Assembly: GCA_026413325.1 (NCBI GenBank)
Contig: JANZYW010000003.1
Location: forward strand, 1 to 62,317
From: Bacteroidia bacterium
GTDB lineage: Bacteria; Bacteroidota; Bacteroidia; SpSt-205
Length of the DNA: 62,317 nt
Reading direction: 5' to 3'
In this document: positions 2,246 through 28,987 of the stretch, one piece after another
Numbering within the stretch: position 1 is the first letter of the stretch
How the letters are laid out: each line of letters opens with the position of its first letter
Position numbers and translations under genes: made by a program
Notes under the pieces: generated by a model
Database searches by the model: none
What the model was told of the DNA's origin: nothing
The model's input: only the letters and a program-made list of their open reading frames with translations

Positions 2246-3943
2246 TTATCCTATTTCCATCGCTAAGAGGAGCAGATCGTCTGTCTGCGTCCGCCCAGAA
2301 GCCCAGAGTCGTATCGCCTCCCTCAAGTGAGCTATCTGTTCCTTCAAAGTAAGGTTGCTATATGTCTGAAGAAATGCTTTCAAACGACTACTGGAAAATC
2401 GCTTGCCCTCCATGTTGAGCTGATCGACCAGCCCATCTGAAAATAGGTAGATTCGATCCCCAGGCTGGAGAGTGAGTCGCTGGAGAGTAGGAGGGGTGCG
2501 CTGCTGATCATTTCTCGTGACGCTTATATCTTGCAAGCCGCCTGAGAGAGCATAGACTTCCCCTCCCCGCACCACCCACAGAGGCCTGCGAGCTCCCAAA
2601 TAAAGGGCTTTCCGTGTAGAAGAGGTATAAGAAAGCAGAGCCAACTCAAATCCATCTAAAAGAGGGGCTTCTCCGCCGAAAACCTCTTGGATATCCTTGA
2701 CGAGGTGGGCATATATTCGCTCTAAGTCACCCTGATAGTGACTTAGGATTTGTCTCAGCACTGTGGCTGCATAGATACTCAACATCGCAGCAGAAACCCC
2801 ATGTCCCGTACTATCTCCCATCGCAAGAACCAGTTGATCTCCTATCGGCTCGGCTACATAAAAATCTCCCCCCACCCCCATCTGTGGAGCATACCAAACC
2901 TCCACTACAGAAAAGAAGGGACGAAGCTGTTCTACAGGAGTGAGAAATCGACTTTGAATGCGAAAAGCGTACTGAAAAGATTGGTTGAGCTCCTCCTGAT
3001 AGATGCGGAGCCGCTCTTCACGCTCTTTTCGCTTAGTAACATTGAGCATAGAACCCAGATAATGGGTAGTATTCCCCAGTTCATCTCTTATAGGAACTAT
3101 GCTGATGAGCATCCAGTAGCCTTTTCCCTGCTTATCATACGCATAGATCTCTCGAGTAAATGGTGCTCGGCTGAGATGAGATAGAATCGAGTTCTCAGGA
3201 GTGGGACTTGTCTCCGGGGTCGGAAGTAGATACCCAAAGGTACCGCCCACGTCATCTGCTCGACGCCCTACCAGTTCTGAGGCAGGCCAGCCCGACGCCC
3301 GCTCAAACATGCGGTTTACCCAAACGATATGTCCTTGACCATCCAAAATGAACTGCATCATGTGGGAATAGGCGGTAGCAGCTGCCAGGAGACGAATCTT
3401 CTCCGACTGTTGGATGAGCTCTTCCATCACTGCTTCTTTCTCTGAGGCGAGGCGATCTGCCCGGTCTATCTGCTCCTGCAGCTGAGACGCATACCGAATA
3501 AGCTCTTCCTTCATCATCTCGAGCTCCGAGACATCCTGGAAGATTAGGAGGAAATGACTGCATGTTCCCTCTGGGGTAGGCAGCCCCATCCACAGACCAT
3601 TGATGGGTTTATCCCCTTCCACAGAACGAAAATGAACGCTATACTGCCCTTCCTGCATCCTCTCGGTGTAGAGCCGAAGAATCGGTTCAGAAGGATGAAA
3701 ATAGGTTTCTAAGAGAGAAAGAGGCGTCATTCGCCGCAGCTCTCTACCCGATATGCCCATTAAGAGCAAACTGGCAGGACTTGCCCAGCTGATACGGTCC
3801 CTCTGAACGTCAAAGACAAAGACTGGTATGGGGAAAAACTGCGCCATCTTATCGGCCAGATAGGCATCCAAAGGCATCTCTTCCAGACCCAGTTGAGATG
3901 CTTGCCCCATCATCCGCCGTACCAGATCTCCTAAGGAAGCCAT
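2246..3943 (-). CDS. PAS-domain SpoIIE/PP2C-type Ser/Thr phosphatase
   Basis: Two PAS-like segments and coiled coils, then PP2C motifs VGGDFY, GDSTGHGVSAAM, FSDGLVDQ and QTDDL. Confidence 0.88.
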   Translation of the reverse strand: MASLGDLVRRMMGQASQLGLEEMPLDAYLADKMAQFFPIPVFVFDVQRDRISWASPASLLLMGISGRELRRMTPLSLLETYFHPSEPILRLYTERMQEGQYSVHFRSVEGDKPINGLWMGLPTPEGTCSHFLLIFQDVSELEMMKEELIRYASQLQEQIDRADRLASEKEAVMEELIQQSEKIRLLAAATAYSHMMQFILDGQGHIVWVNRMFERASGWPASELVGRRADDVGGTFGYLLPTPETSPTPENSILSHLSRAPFTREIYAYDKQGKGYWMLISIVPIRDELGNTTHYLGSMLNVTKRKEREERLRIYQEELNQSFQYAFRIQSRFLTPVEQLRPFFSVVEVWYAPQMGVGGDFYVAEPIGDQLVLAMGDSTGHGVSAAMLSIYAATVLRQILSHYQGDLERIYAHLVKDIQEVFGGEAPLLDGFELALLSYTSSTRKALYLGARRPLWVVRGGEVYALSGGLQDISVTRNDQQRTPPTLQRLTLQPGDRIYLFSDGLVDQLNMEGKRFSSSRLKAFLQTYSNLTLKEQIAHLREAIRLWASGRTQTDDLLLLAMEIG

Positions 3944-3951
3944 AGACTGTG

Positions 3952-5097
3952 TCAGACCCGTTGGAGGGCAGATTGGAGATCTATTATGAGGTCCTCACTA
4001 TCCTCGATACCCACCGAAAGACGCAAGAGACCTGGCGTGATACCCAAGGTACGCCGCTCCTCTTCTGGGATAGAAGCATGCGTCATCGTAGCGGGGTGGT
4101 TCACCAGGGACTCTACCCCTCCTAAACTCTCCGCCAGAGTAAATACCTGTAAAGATTCCCAAAATCCACGCAGATCTTCTGGGTCCTGGACTGGAATCTC
4201 AAAAGACACCATCCCTCCCGGAAGGCGCATCTGCTGTTTTGCCAAAAGATATTGGGGGTGGGTCAAAAGCCCAGGATAGTACACTCGAGCCACTTTGGGG
4301 TGAGTAGCCAAAAACTCTGCCACTTTCTGAGCATTTTCACAGTGTTTCTGCATCCGCAGAGGCAACGTTTTGATACCCCTCAGCACGAGAAAACAGTCCA
4401 TAGGTCCTGGGACTGCCCCTACCGCATTTTGTAGAAAGCGAAGGCGATGATAATCCTCTTCCCGATTAAGCATAATAGCCCCCATCACAACATCAGAATG
4501 CCCACCCAGGTATTTGGTGGCAGAATGGACGACGATATCTGCCTCCATCTCTAATGGATTTTGAAGGTAGGGAGTGGCAAACGTATTATCCACAACAAGC
4601 TTTGCCCCCCGCTGATGGGCCACATCTGCCAGTGCAGGGATAGGCGAAACATGCAAGAGGGGATTGCTGGGTGTCTCTACCCACAGCAGGCGGGTTTCAG
4701 GCCGAAATGCCGATTCTACCTGCGCCACATCCGTCGTATCCACAAAGTCAAAGCTTAGCCCCCAGGGCTCAAAGACTCGACGCATGATCCGATACGTCCC
4801 TCCATACAAATCTCGGCTGACGAGCACATGGTCGCCAGGAGAGAGAAGGCGCAAGACTGCATCTGTCGCAGCTAAACCAGATGCGAAAGCTAATGCATAC
4901 GAAGCCCCCTCCAGTTGAGCCAACGCCATCTCCAAAGCCGTTCGAGTGGGGTTATGGGTACGGCTGTATTCATATCCCTTATGAACCCCAGGGGCTTCTT
5001 GGGCATACGTAGAAGTGAAGTATACGGGCACCATCACCGCTCCTGTAAGCGGATCCGGCTCTGTCCCCGCATGAACTGCCAGTGTGTGCCATTTCAC
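3952..5097 (-). CDS. Cystathionine gamma-synthase/gamma-lyase (PLP-dependent trans-sulfuration enzyme)
   Basis: YEYSRTHNPT, ETPSNP, VDNTFATP, HSATKYLGGHSD (PLP lysine), AESLGGVESL and LLRLSVGIED. Confidence 0.93.
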   Translation of the reverse strand: MKWHTLAVHAGTEPDPLTGAVMVPVYFTSTYAQEAPGVHKGYEYSRTHNPTRTALEMALAQLEGASYALAFASGLAATDAVLRLLSPGDHVLVSRDLYGGTYRIMRRVFEPWGLSFDFVDTTDVAQVESAFRPETRLLWVETPSNPLLHVSPIPALADVAHQRGAKLVVDNTFATPYLQNPLEMEADIVVHSATKYLGGHSDVVMGAIMLNREEDYHRLRFLQNAVGAVPGPMDCFLVLRGIKTLPLRMQKHCENAQKVAEFLATHPKVARVYYPGLLTHPQYLLAKQQMRLPGGMVSFEIPVQDPEDLRGFWESLQVFTLAESLGGVESLVNHPATMTHASIPEEERRTLGITPGLLRLSVGIEDSEDLIIDLQSALQRV

Positions 5098-21073: not shown

Positions 21074-21216
21074 CCCCGCAAAGATAGAAGATGCATCTCA
21101 TGACGTGCCATTCTCATAGAAAACGAATAGAATAGGTTTATCTCCACTCCCACTGAATGCAAAAATCCTTCGATAAAACCTCTCTTATCCTCTTTCACAG
21201 TAAGTACCTTTGTGAG

Positions 21217-22425
21217 GTGGAAAAGTCTGCAGAATTACTTCGGCTGCGCCGCTCTCAAGTGGTAGGATGGCTCATCTTTCTCTCCTACTTACTCAATCTT
21301 TTTCTCAGTGAGATGTTCATCCCTTCCTCTCAGGTTCATGCAAAATGGCTGTATCGGTATCTGTATGGACTGGGGATTTTGTACCCCGCCGGGATTCTTT
21401 TTGCTCTTTATCATCCAAGCACCCGCCAAAATCCGCTTATCCGAATCCTTTGCGTTTACGGGAGTACCCTTCCTATTCTGGCGGAAGCTGTCCTCACGTA
21501 TCCTCTGCCAGGAGGTACTTTTTGGTGGGTATGCTTTACAGGAGGTTACGGCGCTATTCTACTCCTTGAGCCTAAAGCTCGCACTTGGCAAATTCATCTT
21601 CTTATCGGAGGGCATATTTTACTCGCTATCATAGGGGTTTTTTTGCACCGCTGGCTCAACTATATCCCCGCAAATGAGGTCAGCAACGGACATCTCCGAT
21701 TTGGAACACTTAGCGTATTCGTAGGAATAGCTGCCTACTTAGGATACTTTCAATACAAAGACGTATTGTCTGAAATCTTACGAGCCAAAGAAGAGCAAGA
21801 GATGCTGATAAGCGATCAGAGAAGCCTCCTAATAGAAGCGACCATCCAGCGGGAAGAGGCCATAAAGCGCCGGGAAGAAGCCGAAGCCGCCATCCGAGAA
21901 GTACAGAAACTCCGAGAAGAAGAGCGACAGCGGAGCCAAAGAGAAGCATTCATCGTGCGCTATGAGGCCCTCATGCGAAGCAGCTATTCGCTGAGCTCTG
22001 AGGCGTTTGCCCGCCTTCTGCTGGAGTACTTCGCGGAGGACTTACAGGCAGTGGGAGGCGTTTTCTATCTAAGGAGAGCGGATGCCTGGCATGTCCTCCG
22101 TACCTACGCCTATCCTTTTCATGAAGGAAAGATCGGAAAAGGAGGCGCCCTGGACATAGCCGCCCATCTCCGCAAACCTTATCTCCTGCATCCTGTCCCC
22201 GCAGGTACTCCCAAGCCTTCTTCTGCTCTCTGTACGGTAACTCCTCAAGCCCTTTTGTACCTTCCTTTCTACAGTGAAGCCACTCAAGAAACCATGGCTA
22301 TTACCGAGCTCTTGCTGGGCAGCCTGCCCACAGACGATTTCCTTCTTCTCCTCGAAGCAATCCTCCCTCGAATAGGGACCTATATCTGGGCCCGAGAAAG
22401 ACAAGTAGCAAATGCACCCTCATAA
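21217..22425 (+). CDS. Membrane sensor-like protein (about 6 TM + coiled coil + GAF-like domain)
   Basis: Hydrophobic N-half, E/R-rich coiled coil, and GVFY...TYAY...LLYLPF...ELL GAF-like C-terminus. Start likely GTG 21217, 4 nt after TACCTTTG. Confidence 0.6.
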   Translation: MEKSAELLRLRRSQVVGWLIFLSYLLNLFLSEMFIPSSQVHAKWLYRYLYGLGILYPAGILFALYHPSTRQNPLIRILCVYGSTLPILAEAVLTYPLPGGTFWWVCFTGGYGAILLLEPKARTWQIHLLIGGHILLAIIGVFLHRWLNYIPANEVSNGHLRFGTLSVFVGIAAYLGYFQYKDVLSEILRAKEEQEMLISDQRSLLIEATIQREEAIKRREEAEAAIREVQKLREEERQRSQREAFIVRYEALMRSSYSLSSEAFARLLLEYFAEDLQAVGGVFYLRRADAWHVLRTYAYPFHEGKIGKGGALDIAAHLRKPYLLHPVPAGTPKPSSALCTVTPQALLYLPFYSEATQETMAITELLLGSLPTDDFLLLLEAILPRIGTYIWARERQVANAPS

Positions 22426-22756: not shown

Positions 22757-22851
22757 CCCTCCCCTCTAAAAGCCTTCTTATCCACAGATTATATTCAACT
22801 GCCTGTACAGGGGAGGATACGCCCCTGTCCTAACCTGTATATTTGCTTTGG

Positions 22852-25800
22852 ATGAAACATAGTATGACCTGGAGAGAGAGTAGGTATCAATCCTATCCTT
22901 CTCTGTGCCCGATAGTATTATCTATACAGATTGCAAGTCTTGTTTTCTTCTGCCAAGCTCAGACGCCTTCCTGGCAGGCTTCTGTCCCGCGAGGTGCTGC
23001 TATAGACCTATTACCTGATGGAAATCTTTTAGTAATGGCTGGGAAAGAAGGCGTATACGCTGTTTCTTCCAAAGATGGCCAGAAACTTTGGCACTGCAGT
23101 GCTTGCAATCGAGCTGGCTCGAAGGAGTGGCGACAAATACAAAATCTTCCCCTGTGGGAGGCGGGAAGGTTGCTCCTGGGCCCTCCAGGAGTGTCTGGAG
23201 ACAGTTTGAGGCGGCTCTATCCCGACTGGTGGAGCCGTCCCTACCTACTGCTCAATGCAGCTACGGGTAGGTTGATCTTCGATGCAGAGCAGGAGCGGCG
23301 AAGCTGGAGTGTAGTGAGTGGACGCGCAGTTTTACCTGAGCAGGGTACATTGATACTATTCGGCCTGGGACCTAAAGAACCCGGGCGCTTTTTGTCTACA
23401 GAGACTTCTATCCTTGCAGCTTATGATCTGCGTAGTGGAAGTCAGCTTTGGCGCCGACCTGCGGGCGAAAAAGCAGCTTTAGAAAACTTACAAAGCAATT
23501 TGGCAGCTTTCGAAGGAAGGGTGTATTTCCTCACCAATAAAGCCCTCTATGCCGTCGAAGCTCGAACTGGAGCCCAACTCTGGCGAGTTCCTATCGTGAA
23601 AGATTTTAGCCTCCGAGCCACAACAGGTACTTACGTCTTCGTGGACCCAGAAAAAGATTTAGTAGTTGCTTTCGGACGGGGACGTATAGTCGCTGTACAG
23701 CGTAGCAGCGGCCAACCTGTCTGGAGTAAGCCTGTGAATGTTCCTCGAGATAATATCTTGCACGCATTTAGTACGTCTGCAGGGATTCTTTTATTTACAG
23801 ATGACCTCACACCAGGCTCCCCGAATCGACCTACTGGCCGCAATCTTCTCTCCCCTCCCCTGGCTCTCTTGCTTCGATACGAAAGCGGGGAAAACGTCTG
23901 GGGAGAGCGTCTGAAAACCCCAGGTTTACTTGCTGGGTACATTCCACTCACAGAAAATCGCCTTTTTTGCCTCTTCCAACGCGAGCGGTTCTGGAGCTCT
24001 GGACAAGGTCGCCCTGAAGACTGGGCAGCGGTAGAAATAGATGTATTAGACATTCAACGGGGCCAATTCCTCTTTAAGAATCCCCTTCGACTTCAAGGAG
24101 CGCTTCTTACTGCCCAGAATGTACCAGGGGGATTTTTGGTACAGACTGCCCGCCGAATTCAATATCTCAGTGAGGAAGGCCAGGTTTTATGGGAAAAACC
24201 TATTCGTCGACCCTTTCGGCTCCCATTTGCAGTGCGAGACGAAGGAGGCGTATTTCAAGCCTATTTTATCGATGAGGGTGGCCAGCTGTACCGATGGGAT
24301 GGTCCTGGGCGGGAGCCTCAATCAATAGGCAAGCCTTTATCTGCTTTTCTCTCCGACCCTGCACAAGGCATAGCCTGGGAAAAAGGAAAGTTATACGTAT
24401 GGGGAGGTTCCAGTTTATACCTTCTCACTTCAGAAGGAGACATCCTGTGCGAGTTTCGGCGCCCTCCCCCTGCCTACTCCCCTGCCATACGACTCCTTGG
24501 CACTACGATAAGCATTGCGGGTTATGCCACTTCCGCCTATCTAACTTACAAAGCCCTTCAAACCTTATCTTACGACCCCGAAAGAGAATGGGACAGACCC
24601 GATCAAGCTACCTCCCTCCGACAGGCTCTCACAGCAGCTGGATATCTAACAGGAGCCGTAGCCACCGAGTTCATCGCTGATGTCTCCTGGGAAGCCATAG
24701 TCAAAAGACGCCAGACTCAAATAAAAGACATAGAAAATCATGCATTCCTCTTAGGAATGAACAAAAACAGTGCTATATTCTTTATCTTAGATAAGACAAC
24801 ATGTGAAGTCAAAGGACAAACAGATTTAGGGCCGCTTCGGCTCTTTCAATCCCTGGAGATGGAAGTCGATCCCTTGGAAAAGCGCGTCTATGTGTTAGAT
24901 GATGAGCAAATCCTGGCTTTCGAGATGCCTGGGGGAGTCAGGAATCCCCCCCCCCTACTTCGAGCGCTGGTTATCCGCATCCAAGGGCCGCTGGAAAGCC
25001 CAGAACAAAGTGAAGAATACGTAGAGGAACTCCTCTTTCTGACGAGAAGCGCTGGCTATGTCGTCTCTCATGCTCTCTCTTATTCGTGGAGAAGGCCTGA
25101 CCCCGCCACTTTTCTCACTCGAGGGCGAGTAGAAGAGATCTTGGGCTTCTTACGGGAACGAGAATCAGAAATAGACTTCATTCTCGTAGATGCTGAGCTT
25201 TCCGCCGTACAAGTTCGAAACTTAGAAAAAACATGGAATAAGCCAGTAACAGACCGAGAAGGGCTCATTTTAGAAATTTTTGCCCGAAATGCTCGTACAG
25301 CTCAAGCGAAAGCCCAAGTTGAGTTAGCACGATTGGAGTACGAGCTGCCTCGGTTAGCGCATCGATGGACCCATTTATCTCGGGAACGGGGAGGCATTGG
25401 CTTGCGAGGGGGAGGAGGGGAGCAACAGCTGGAGACCGATCGTCGCAAAGTGCGGCAGCAGATCGCGCGACTTCGACAGAAAGTGGCCGAGTTTCAACGT
25501 CAAGCGGAAATCCGACGAGAACGGCGAGAAAATCTCCCCCGAGTCGCTCTTGTAGGATACACAAACGTGGGAAAATCGACTCTCATGCGGCTCATCACCA
25601 AATCCCCCGTTCTCGTCGCTGATCGGCTCTTCGCTACGCTCGATACCACCACCCGTCGAGTAGTCTTAGATGGGATGGCCTTTCTTCTCTCTGATACGGT
25701 AGGATTCATCCGGAAACTACCCCCTACCTTATTAGAGGCTTTCCATACAACTTTAGAGGAGGTTCGAGAAGCGGATCTTCTCCTACTCGTCGTAGATGCC

Positions 25801-26079
25801 AGCTCCCCTGGCTATCTGGAGCAGATCCGCACTGTAGAGCGGACGCTTGAAATGATAGGAGCGGCTCATATCCCCATTCTCATCGTAATGAACAAGATCG
25901 ATCGCTTACCTCCCGAGCAGAAGGAGCTATTAGAAGAAAGTTGGCGAGCCCAAAGCGCATATCCCACTGTTTTCCTTTCAGCTACCGAGAAGTATAATGT
26001 AGAACAGCTACATCGCCAGATCATAGAGCTTCTCCGTGCTCTCCCCCGCTACCAGAAACAAATTCCCTCAACTGTATGA
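22852..26079 (+). CDS. hflX: PQQ/BamB-like beta-propeller fused to GTPase HflX
   Basis: First ~690 aa have repeated A.D..TG..LW propeller motifs after a signal-like peptide. The C-terminal ~370 aa are HflX (LILEIF...A.T..AK.QVELA.L.Y.LPRL, GYTNVGKST, LFATLDTT, DTVG, NKID). The fusion may depend on a C10 tract (see findings). Confidence 0.85.
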   Translation: MKHSMTWRESRYQSYPSLCPIVLSIQIASLVFFCQAQTPSWQASVPRGAAIDLLPDGNLLVMAGKEGVYAVSSKDGQKLWHCSACNRAGSKEWRQIQNLPLWEAGRLLLGPPGVSGDSLRRLYPDWWSRPYLLLNAATGRLIFDAEQERRSWSVVSGRAVLPEQGTLILFGLGPKEPGRFLSTETSILAAYDLRSGSQLWRRPAGEKAALENLQSNLAAFEGRVYFLTNKALYAVEARTGAQLWRVPIVKDFSLRATTGTYVFVDPEKDLVVAFGRGRIVAVQRSSGQPVWSKPVNVPRDNILHAFSTSAGILLFTDDLTPGSPNRPTGRNLLSPPLALLLRYESGENVWGERLKTPGLLAGYIPLTENRLFCLFQRERFWSSGQGRPEDWAAVEIDVLDIQRGQFLFKNPLRLQGALLTAQNVPGGFLVQTARRIQYLSEEGQVLWEKPIRRPFRLPFAVRDEGGVFQAYFIDEGGQLYRWDGPGREPQSIGKPLSAFLSDPAQGIAWEKGKLYVWGGSSLYLLTSEGDILCEFRRPPPAYSPAIRLLGTTISIAGYATSAYLTYKALQTLSYDPEREWDRPDQATSLRQALTAAGYLTGAVATEFIADVSWEAIVKRRQTQIKDIENHAFLLGMNKNSAIFFILDKTTCEVKGQTDLGPLRLFQSLEMEVDPLEKRVYVLDDEQILAFEMPGGVRNPPPLLRALVIRIQGPLESPEQSEEYVEELLFLTRSAGYVVSHALSYSWRRPDPATFLTRGRVEEILGFLRERESEIDFILVDAELSAVQVRNLEKTWNKPVTDREGLILEIFARNARTAQAKAQVELARLEYELPRLAHRWTHLSRERGGIGLRGGGGEQQLETDRRKVRQQIARLRQKVAEFQRQAEIRRERRENLPRVALVGYTNVGKSTLMRLITKSPVLVADRLFATLDTTTRRVVLDGMAFLLSDTVGFIRKLPPTLLEAFHTTLEEVREADLLLLVVDASSPGYLEQIRTVERTLEMIGAAHIPILIVMNKIDRLPPEQKELLEESWRAQSAYPTVFLSATEKYNVEQLHRQIIELLRALPRYQKQIPSTV

Positions 26080-26549
26080 ACAATAATTTCTTATTATTGC
26101 TTTTGTTCCCTCTCATCACACTGAGCCAGTCGATGAGTGATTCCATTCAAGTTCGACGCGTACAGCGCAGTCTCTTCATCCATCTTGGAGGGTGGGCTGG
26201 GGCTGGGATCGCTACAGGTACCTGGCAGACCCTCTCCCGCAGGAATACTATTACCCAGTACATGGGATATCAAAATCTAGCCTGGGGAGGAGTCAATGCT
26301 GCTATTACCGTCATCGGAGCGATCTCCTCCAGAAAGCAAGCAAAACAAATGATAGATTGGTCAGCGAACAAACAGAGACTTCGCCGATGGCTATGGATAA
26401 ATGCAGGCTTAGACTTGGGGTATATGGCTGTGGGTACGTTTTTGGCTACTCGGCCAGATCCCCGTCTCAAAGGAACGGGATACGGGGTCATTCTGCAAGG
26501 GGGAGGCCTTTTCGTTCTGGATGCGTGGCACGCACTTCGGCTTCGATAG
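26076..26549 (+). CDS. Hypothetical membrane protein (DUF6992-like)
   Basis: QNLAWG.VN, WINAGLDLGYM and G.G.GVILQG..LFVLD hydrophobic motifs; overlaps the hflX stop. Confidence 0.55.
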   Translation: MNNNFLLLLLFPLITLSQSMSDSIQVRRVQRSLFIHLGGWAGAGIATGTWQTLSRRNTITQYMGYQNLAWGGVNAAITVIGAISSRKQAKQMIDWSANKQRLRRWLWINAGLDLGYMAVGTFLATRPDPRLKGTGYGVILQGGGLFVLDAWHALRLR

Positions 26550-26644: not shown

Positions 26645-28987
26645 TTAGGGCAACCATTTTATCCTACACCACGAGAAGCGATACTGAGAACCCACTCGGA
26701 CCCAAAAATGCAGTGTCGTATCTATGGGAGGAGGAGCATACCACCGGACCTGTCCGATCCGCTGCCATCCGATCGTGTCGTGCCCTACCCCCCACAGCAG
26801 AGGAGTAGGAGGGCTACTTCTCGCCTGTAAGGGAAGGCGTCCTTTTCGACGAGAGAGCCACAGTGTACTTCCACGAGGAGGAAAGTCTACTTCCACCTCC
26901 AGCCCAGGACACGATGGGGCGTGGGGAGGAAGGTCTATCGTGTCGGGGCTCCCTCCAATCAGTCCCCACGGTACATTAGGAAATGCAACCCTCTTAAGCT
27001 GTAGACCACTCGTATCGCGGGGAAGACAAAGCTCACAATAGCTAAAAGAAGCGTTCTTCCACAATACGCGGGTATGCCTACACACAGGTAGGATACTACC
27101 TTCTTTCACTCGCCAGGCTTCAAGAGAGGCACTGCAGCTTTCTCCTATGCGATGCCCCGTAAGAGGGCAGATACGGACTCTCTCTACACAAAAGGGAGGG
27201 GACTCTTTCTTTCCTTCCCCCAAGAGAGCGGTTATTTCCTGCGCAAGGGGTAGAGCTACAAGAGAACCTTTGAGACAACCACTGGGAGAAGCATCAGGAT
27301 TTCCTATCCATACCCCCACCACATACCGGCTGTCATATGCGATACACCATGCATCTCGCAGCTGCGCAGAAGTTCCTGTTTTGTAGCTCCAGCCATCTTC
27401 CCTGCAGAGGATACCCCGAACTATCCAAGGCCCTCCTTTCCCCCATACAATACGCTTTTCAGGCGAATCGGAAGCCTTTCGGCGGAGACGAATCCATACT
27501 CCCCCACTTGCCAGGGCAGTATAGGCCTGAACTATATTGAAAAGAGAGGCCTCCGCTGCACCGACTATCACCGCATATCCCCCTTTTCTCGAAAGAACAA
27601 TACCCAGCGCTTCCATCGTGGAGAAAAAAGATTCAAGCCCCACCTGTCCCAGCAGATCAACCGCTGGAGCGTTAAGAGAGTAGAAAAGAGCTTTTGAGGC
27701 ACTCACGAGACCTTTGTACTCCCTCCGTTGGAAGTTTACAGGTGTATAGCCTCTATAATCTCGAGGCCAGTCCAAGAGGGGAGTCTCCGAGTGGATGATC
27801 CCCTGCTCTAAAGCTTCTGACCACAAAAAGGGCTTGAGTGTGCTGCCAACTGCGCGAGGCGATCGGATAAGATCGATCGCACAAGAAGAATAGGCGCTAC
27901 TGGGTACGTAGGCTCGCACCTTTCCCGTCGTCACTTCAGCTATCAGTACGGCTCCTTCTTGGATACCACATGTACGCCAGAAGTGAAGATATCTTAGGAG
28001 ACGACGGCGTACCTCCTGTTGTAGAGGATTCTCTATGTATAGGGTATCTGTGGATGAAAAGATGGGGGGGAGAACATGGGATTCTAAGCGGGGGCAAGAA
28101 TGCCTCTTAGGTCGCAGATAGGTGGAAATAGCCTGTTGATATACTGCTGCGGATAGGAAGCCGGCTTGGTACCAACGATGGACCCAGCCGAGGGCCTGCT
28201 CTCGGAATCCAGGCTCCCCCTTTTCAAAGGACCTACGCAGACGAGGACGCTGAGATACCAGCAGCAAAGAAGCGATTTCCAAGGGGGTAAGCCTGTCGGC
28301 TCCTTTCCCAAAGTACCGCAAAGCCGCAGCTTCTATACCTTCTATGTTTCCACCAAAAGGGGCATAGGTCAGATAAAATCGCAGGATATCTTCCTTCGTA
28401 TATCGAAGCTCCAGTCCAAAAGCCCAGAAAATCTCCTTGAGCTTTCTTCCGAGAGTACGAGGACCTGGACGCCACAGACGAGCAAGTTGCATAGTCAGCG
28501 TAGATCCGCCTTGGCGTTCTCCGAGGAGAGTCTTACCCAAAGCACGGACAAGTGCAAAAGGATTGACACCTATGTGATACCAGAAAGCCTTATCTTCTTT
28601 GTAGAGCAAGAGGGGAGCCACCCGTCGAATAGTTGCCTCATTGGGAGGAAACCGCCACTTCCCATCGGCCGAAAGCGATGAGTGAAGGAGATTCCCTTTA
28701 TCGTCATACCATCGAGGGCTTAGAGGAGGAGGGGAAGGAGCCGCCTCCCAAGCAGCCCCCAAGAGGAGAAGAATACCTAAAAGCCCATATACCCCCGCCT
28801 CTATCCACGAGACCGACTCTGTGCCAAGAAGGCGCCTTATGAGGACATACTTTTTCGGCCCAGCGGCCGCCGCCACAGGCGGCGGCCGCCCAACCCTAAA
28901 CAAACCAGCACCAGAATCACCAAAGCACCCCAGCCCCCACACAAGACAAAAAACAAGCCCCTCCTCTACATCCCCCCGCCACTTCAT
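26645..28987 (-). CDS. pbpC: Penicillin-binding protein 1C
   Basis: Transglycosylase motifs EDKAFWYHIGVNP, GGSTLTMQLAR, RKLKE and PFGGNIEG; transpeptidase motifs STLK, SLN and KTG. Downstream of alpha-2-macroglobulin. Start uncertain. Confidence 0.9.
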   Translation of the reverse strand: MKWRGDVEEGLVFCLVWGLGCFGDSGAGLFRVGRPPPVAAAAGPKKYVLIRRLLGTESVSWIEAGVYGLLGILLLLGAAWEAAPSPPPLSPRWYDDKGNLLHSSLSADGKWRFPPNEATIRRVAPLLLYKEDKAFWYHIGVNPFALVRALGKTLLGERQGGSTLTMQLARLWRPGPRTLGRKLKEIFWAFGLELRYTKEDILRFYLTYAPFGGNIEGIEAAALRYFGKGADRLTPLEIASLLLVSQRPRLRRSFEKGEPGFREQALGWVHRWYQAGFLSAAVYQQAISTYLRPKRHSCPRLESHVLPPIFSSTDTLYIENPLQQEVRRRLLRYLHFWRTCGIQEGAVLIAEVTTGKVRAYVPSSAYSSCAIDLIRSPRAVGSTLKPFLWSEALEQGIIHSETPLLDWPRDYRGYTPVNFQRREYKGLVSASKALFYSLNAPAVDLLGQVGLESFFSTMEALGIVLSRKGGYAVIVGAAEASLFNIVQAYTALASGGVWIRLRRKASDSPEKRIVWGKGGPWIVRGILCREDGWSYKTGTSAQLRDAWCIAYDSRYVVGVWIGNPDASPSGCLKGSLVALPLAQEITALLGEGKKESPPFCVERVRICPLTGHRIGESCSASLEAWRVKEGSILPVCRHTRVLWKNASFSYCELCLPRDTSGLQLKRVAFPNVPWGLIGGSPDTIDLPPHAPSCPGLEVEVDFPPRGSTLWLSRRKGRLPLQARSSPPTPLLWGVGHDTIGWQRIGQVRWYAPPPIDTTLHFWVRVGSQYRFSWCRIKWLP
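28863..28889. repeat. Perfect GC-only inverted repeat (12-bp stem, 3-nt loop)
   Basis: GCGGCCGCCGCC-ACA-GGCGGCGGCCGC. Confidence 0.85.

Follow-up and report, generated by a model that had tools for sequence, protein, structure and literature searches.

Can a ribosome-splitting GTPase be joined in nature to an exported beta-propeller? The question is raised by a locus from an uncultured hot-spring Bacteroidia bacterium (GTDB lineage Bacteria; Bacteroidota; Bacteroidia; SpSt-205). The window analyzed here comprises 62,317 nucleotides (nt), positions 1 to 62,317 of the forward strand of contig JANZYW010000003.1 (GenBank assembly GCA_026413325.1), and all coordinates refer to it. Within this window, a PQQ-like propeller and the GTPase HflX are read as a single frame that crosses a run of ten cytosines. 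An earlier reading of the letters alone (the sequence-only reading) offered three interpretations: a novel membrane-tethered HflX, a slippage-controlled switch between fused and split forms, or a homopolymer sequencing error. Our comparisons indicate that the apparent fusion is most likely an assembly artefact caused by miscalled bases beside the C-run, to which we assign a probability of roughly 80%. The organism itself probably carries two ordinary, adjacent, co-oriented genes, an exported propeller followed by a stand-alone hflX, which would be co-translated.

The open frame spans 22843..26079 (+) and encodes 1078 amino acids (aa) from a TTG start or, as the sequence-only reading had described, 1075 aa from the ATG at 22852. 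The homopolymer also lies where it had been placed (24946..24955, +). Pfam analysis of the 1078-aa frame located PQQ_2/BamB-like repeats at residues 136-308 and all three HflX domains at residues 724-1018, which agrees with the proposed order of propeller repeats and then a complete HflX. At the junction, the frame of the window reads ...AFEMPGGVRNPPPLLRALVIR. The alternative readings pointed out earlier are all present as well: the in-frame ATG at 24925 opens MPGGVRNPPPLLRALVIR, an ATG at 24902 in the +1 frame opens MSKSWLSRCLGESGIPPP, and one extra C would lead into a frame that reads PTSSAGYPHPRAAGKPRTK up to its stop codon.

We searched 40 related genomes, 13 from the same genus and 27 from outside it, with the propeller part and the HflX part as separate queries. 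HflX was present in all 40. Strong matches to the propeller gene were found in 11 of the 13 same-genus genomes (the two without one are 65% and 92% complete) and in none of the 27 genomes of the same class outside the genus. In every one of the 11 genomes carrying the pair, hflX directly follows the propeller gene, with both on one strand but in different frames, so that the comparison proposed by the sequence-only reading, fused against adjacent genes, returned separate genes throughout and a fusion in none of the 11. The frames differ in all 10 loci for which downstream DNA was available, which belong to named metagenome-assembled genome (MAG) records of uncultured Bacteroidia, mostly hot-spring bins. 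The junction is GAATGA in 8 of the 11, with the TGA of the propeller gene overlapping the ATG of hflX; in two others, the genes are a few bases apart or overlap by a few, and one has an insert of about 550 nt. By eye, this insert (relative G009, locus L010, about 3487-4040) seems to contain a small frame that encodes heptad-like LEEK/LEKH repeats as well as a hydrophobic stretch. The invariable placement of the propeller gene upstream of hflX suggests co-expression, and the ATGA overlap suggests translational coupling of the two genes in these relatives.

Alignment of the relatives placed the missing gene boundary within the window. In a MAFFT alignment of the junctions, position 24934 falls opposite the T of the propeller TGA stop in 9 of 10 relatives. 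The propeller proteins of seven relatives align end to end with the window, and their termini lie exactly opposite the window residues ...LAFEMPG. No homopolymer occurs at the junction of any of the 10 aligned relatives, and the junction patch of the window resembles that of none of them. The starts of stand-alone HflX proteins provided a second reference point. Across the HflX proteins of 28 relatives, the position of a conserved LV[IV]R motif ranges from residue 8 to 21, and 4 relatives have a protein that begins MNSQPLRAL (MNSRPLRAL in one of them).

A second assembly of the same junction came from a public DNA run, here X1, consisting of contigs from a hot-springs metagenome and containing 95% of sampled words of 24000-26000. 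One contig of this run (3624 nt, depth 10.5) spans 24500-25400 with no insertions or deletions and nine substitutions relative to the window. Seven lie at the junction (window>contig): 24925 A>C, 24927 G>T, 24934 G>T, 24937 G>T, 24941 G>T, 24946 C>A, and 24967 C>T; the remaining two are at 25245 and 25251. By hand reading of the codons, the contig has CTT for ATG at 24925, TGA for GGA at 24934-36, ATG for AGG at 24940-42, and ACC for the first CCC. The propeller of the contig thus ends ...AFELPG-stop, and its hflX starts three bases on with MNTPPLLRALVIR (MNT-PP-LLRAL, hand reading). Both genes occupy one frame in the contig, split by the stop and then ttc, and the tract is A + C9. The letters of the contig at 24925, 24927, 24941, and 24946 match relative G002 by hand reading, with the automatic alignment placing some of them in other columns. 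Neither an unchanged 27-mer just upstream of the junction nor a pattern spanning it, with N in place of the seven differing bases, gave a match among JGI metagenome contigs.

The version in the run contig looks like the true or ancestral one, because its T at 24934 aligns with the TGA stop of the relatives, its hflX start resembles MNSQPLRAL, and its LV[IV]R motif falls by hand count at residue 10, inside the range of 8-21. The true end of the propeller gene (22852..24936, +) is most likely the codon at 24934-24936, which the window reads as GGA and the run contig as TGA, as indicated by the stops of the relatives. The encoded protein scores 73 bits for Pfam PQQ_2. A complete hflX (24925..26079, +; TIGR03156 and Pfam) follows, delimited in the window by the in-frame ATG at 24925 and in the run contig by the ATG at 24940.

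The distribution of the differences separates the junction from its flanks. Six of them (24925, 24927, 24934, 24937, 24941, and 24946; 24925..24946, +) are all A/C or G/T transversions and lie on a single side of the homopolymer, the base adjoining the tract among them. The other three (24967, 25245, and 25251) are transitions and synonymous by hand codon count, 24967 being the first position of a Leu codon and the other two third positions. Over the 901 nt compared, this amounts to 6 differences in 22 nt (27%) against 3 in about 880 nt (about 0.3%). Flanks that differ by about 0.3%, and at silent sites only, cannot explain 27% within a 22-nt patch, which argues for an artefact rather than evolution. 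Import of foreign DNA is disfavored because the patch is like no relative's junction. Errors in the run contig are far less likely, as they would require a chance stop at the homologous stop position together with an in-frame start. We infer that the window and not the run contig carries the errors, and that these are errors of base calling.

The six-difference cluster is therefore probably a set of miscalled bases that created the fusion. On minus-strand reads, the six positions come just after a poly-G stretch. Miscalls there would have turned the TGA stop of the propeller gene into GGA and the ATG of hflX into AGG, with the result that two genes read as one 1075-aa frame. The same miscalls would have extended the C-run from 9 to 10 (C10 in the window, A + C9 in the run contig) and accidentally produced the in-frame ATG at 24925. 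A/C and G/T confusions reflect shared detection channels. If the window is wrong, four of the six differences are A-to-C changes on the minus strand after a G-run. Passages of Minoche et al. 2011 (PMC3334598) report that a G frequently precedes miscalled bases in Illumina data, that the commonest error is A-to-C, and that wrong calls build up regionally at strand-specific rates of up to 18.7%. Of the interpretations in the sequence-only reading, sequencing error therefore came closest; what did not hold is the form proposed for it, as the fault appears to be a substitution cluster beside the tract and not a wrong tract length. A quasi-palindrome template switch as the origin of the T-to-G changes was considered by eye and rejected, as the changes are scattered and do not form a contiguous copied tract.

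The remaining G/C runs of the genome were examined for the same behavior. There are 124, 21, and 3 runs of 8, 9, and 10, respectively, and none longer. The numbers expected are 45.7, 11.7, and 3.0 under an independent, identically distributed (i.i.d.) model and 101.8, 29.9, and 8.8 under a second-order Markov model, such that a run of ten C is no commoner than chance in this genome. Runs of 8 are 2.7 times as frequent as the i.i.d. expectation and near the second-order Markov figure. At several sites in this genome (G000, e.g. C22:12681-12689), Gly-Gly-Gly or Pro-Pro-Pro is written GGGGGGGGG or CCCCCCCCC, and relatives mix synonymous codons there. Most of the 24 runs of at least 9 lie deep within long open frames and leave these unbroken, and for this reason tract lengths seem well assembled. 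The length of the tract is not the cause of the fused frame. The other G-runs of at least 9, 23 in number, are followed by 22 nt with a G+C of 0.549 and preceded by 22 nt with a G+C of 0.457 (Fisher 0.004, Wilcoxon 0.023), a hint only, since the 22-nt size was chosen after seeing the present case.

Several observations weigh against the explanation by miscalled bases. The comparison covers consensus contigs of a single run, and run X1 may be the source sample of the window itself, in which case the two assemblies are not independent. The three synonymous differences imply slightly different strains or consensus choices, so that the junction cluster could itself be a strain difference. The asymmetry in G+C is not seen with runs of 8 or when 40 nt are compared. 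Four other G/C runs (9-10 in length) were compared at the protein level with 4-5 relatives each, and three showed no aberrant residues after the G-run, while the fourth sits in a variable region. Miscalling after poly-G was thus treated as not general in this assembly, and any artefact as local and not systematic. Finally, the window retains a usable start in its in-frame ATG at 24925, from which the LV[IV]R motif lies at a plausible residue 15 by hand count.

Some of these observations also favor a biological alternative, a real, strain-specific fused allele in which point mutations arose in a burst at the junction, abolishing the propeller stop and the former hflX start and generating the in-frame ATG at 24925. 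A strain with this allele would make a propeller-HflX read-through protein and also free HflX from ATG 24925. Its frame is open, the HflX behind it is intact, and the lead from ATG 24925 is of normal length, with the motif inside the range seen in relatives. The synonymous transitions between the assemblies are compatible with more than one strain or consensus, other G/C runs in the assembly lack obvious flanking errors, and other HflX fusions exist in the database. Yet six transversions and no transitions in 22 nt, set in flanks that differ only by sparse synonymous transitions, is an unnatural pattern of divergence. The junction is also unlike that of any relative, none of the 11 relatives has a fusion, and the database search described below yielded no other among its best 120 of 2086 matches. 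In addition, the fused HflX would be exported and useless if the C-terminus of the propeller lies outside the cell. We consider such an allele unlikely. Equally, that a genuine strain variant lost the stop between its coupled propeller and hflX genes, and makes a 1075-aa chimera, tethered or exported, plus free HflX, appears improbable; if true, it would capture a gene fusion arising naturally at a junction of the ATGA type.

Two further alternatives place the cause in the tract itself. One is that the C-tract is a contingency locus, whose slipped-strand length changes switch hflX between fused, split, and silenced states. A place just after a start codon is a classical position for phase variation, and the C9/C10 tract sits 6 nt past the hflX start in the run contig (by hand), where a one-base change would shift the hflX frame. 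Against this, the two assemblies differ by no insertion or deletion, the 10 aligned relatives lack a homopolymer at the junction, G/C runs of 10 are at or below chance (3 observed vs 3.0 to 8.8 expected), most of the 24 runs of at least 9 lie inside unbroken long frames, and hflX is single-copy in the genome. A switch of this kind is highly improbable, and the slippage reading offered earlier is not supported, given the first two of these points and the overlong lead from ATG 24902 (motif at residue 23 vs 8-21). The other alternative, scarcely credible on our data, is that the length of the tract was mis-assembled, the true run being C11 or C8, which would move the end of the propeller 23 codons downstream and make ATG 24902 the start of hflX. 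The frames that it needs do exist, as the sequence-only reading described. However, the run contig and the window agree in total length across the tract, and other long runs of the assembly keep their frames. It would also place the motif, by hand count, at residue 23 (C11/ATG 24902), outside the range of 8-21 in 28 relatives, and would make the propeller about 30 aa longer than all seven aligned relatives.

A search of proteins of 591-1882 aa with the HflX part gave 2086 matches, of which the best 120 were listed. Among these 120, the only protein combining PQQ_2 with HflX is that of the window itself (1 member, 1 contig). Other long forms of HflX recur among the same best 120: several JGI clusters contain TPR-HflX proteins (861-864 aa), and several ENA clusters contain UPRTase (PF14681)-HflX proteins (about 620-644 aa). 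Fusions of HflX elsewhere may thus in some cases be real, which that of the window probably is not.

The HflX part itself shows no unusual feature. From ATG 24925, it scores 395.1 bits against TIGR03156 (cut-off 216.75), covering profile positions 3-350 of 351, with the match beginning at residue 15. The three domains follow in the expected order: PF13167 (GTP-bdg_N) at 724-814, PF16360 (GTP-bdg_M) at 817-895, and PF01926 (MMR_HSR1) at 900-1018. There is only one HflX in the 2.19-Mb, 135-contig genome. Stand-alone HflX proteins of the same genus (19 proteins, 374-397 aa) share 76-81% identity with it, and the protein database held no near-identical stand-alone HflX, the best being 81% identical. 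By all of these sequence measures, the second gene belongs fully to the HflX family and is predicted to be a canonical hflX.

The propeller gene is predicted to encode an exported protein of about 694 aa. The signal-like peptide ending in CQA that had been noted earlier corresponds to a real hydrophobic segment (residues 18-36; 22903..22959, +) with a Kyte-Doolittle score of 1.96, the sole segment of the whole frame above the usual threshold of 1.6. The N-termini of the propeller proteins of relatives are likewise short and hydrophobic, ending in AQA, AQS, or LQS. In an AlphaFold2 model (mean predicted local distance difference test score, pLDDT, 70.7), the propeller occupies residues 40-536, followed by helices at 544-627, a conserved pair with pLDDT below 50, and a beta module at 630-691. 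A Foldseek search of the PDB with this model returned generic propellers only (BamB, WD40, and EMC1) at low TM-scores, and gave no functional assignment.

The two "hydrophobic helices" of the sequence-only reading (residues 546-564 and 599-617, with the loop between them; 24487..24702, +) proved less convincing than the signal-like segment. In a 19-residue Kyte-Doolittle window, they score 0.98 and 1.13, below the threshold and no higher than a segment of the HflX G domain (1.31). In relatives, the first scores 1.14-1.41 and the second 1.07-1.73. Among eight aligned proteins, that of the window included, the second helix exceeds 1.6 in two and the first in none. A membrane-tethered HflX is thus not supported: the putative membrane helices are weakly hydrophobic, the run contig has a stop codon at the junction, the 11 relatives lack the fusion, and no other such protein is among the best 120 of 2086 matches.

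Downstream of hflX lies a DUF6992 gene of 157 aa (26076..26549, +), whose ATG overlaps the hflX stop as ATGA at 26076-26079. These two genes may be translationally coupled in the window. A query with the DUF6992 gene of the window did not find it downstream of hflX in the loci of 10 relatives. A 780-aa bifunctional penicillin-binding protein with transglycosylase and transpeptidase domains (26645-28987, -) is oriented convergently to hflX and the DUF6992 gene. Upstream of the propeller gene, 21157-22425 (+) encodes a 422-aa protein with several hydrophobic stretches and a charged, coiled-coil-like middle, to which Pfam gave zero matches. Two of the 11 loci of relatives have a homologue of this protein (37-41% identity) ahead of the propeller gene.

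A genuine fusion would mean the first HflX linked to an exported propeller, and one would then have to ask how a factor that splits ribosomes can act at a membrane. Under the preferred explanation by miscalled bases, the lesson is one for the annotation of MAGs: singleton "fusions" at former stop/start junctions beside G/C homopolymers call for a comparison with reads and relatives before any interpretation. What is left is a modest but real result, namely a genus-specific gene for an exported propeller that always immediately precedes hflX, in most cases overlapping it by ATGA, in a genus of uncultured hot-spring Bacteroidia.

Each part of this locus can be set beside a known system. The junction resembles the sequence-specific substitution errors of Illumina data, as far as these are described in passages of the study cited above (PMC3334598), in that the differences are clustered, one-sided by a G/C homopolymer, and here limited to A/C and G/T exchanges. 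It differs from those cases in that only consensus contigs are compared here, and a MAG consensus would have had to absorb such errors. The propeller resembles BamB (TIGR03300), an outer membrane protein assembly factor, and other PQQ-like eight-bladed propellers in its PQQ_2 repeats, and BamB structures are among its best Foldseek matches (E about 1e-13). However, its TIGR03300 score of 49.6 bits is far below the equivalog cut-off of 285.2, which rules out BamB as its identity. At 694 aa against about 390 for BamB, it also has an additional helical region and, at its C-terminus, a beta module, and the TM-scores of its Foldseek matches are low (0.2-0.45). The second gene, by comparison, matches the stand-alone HflX, a ribosome-splitting and rescue GTPase, in domains, size, and sequence. 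Its only difference from known HflX is the stopless open frame ahead of it, and that frame is found in the assembly of the window only.

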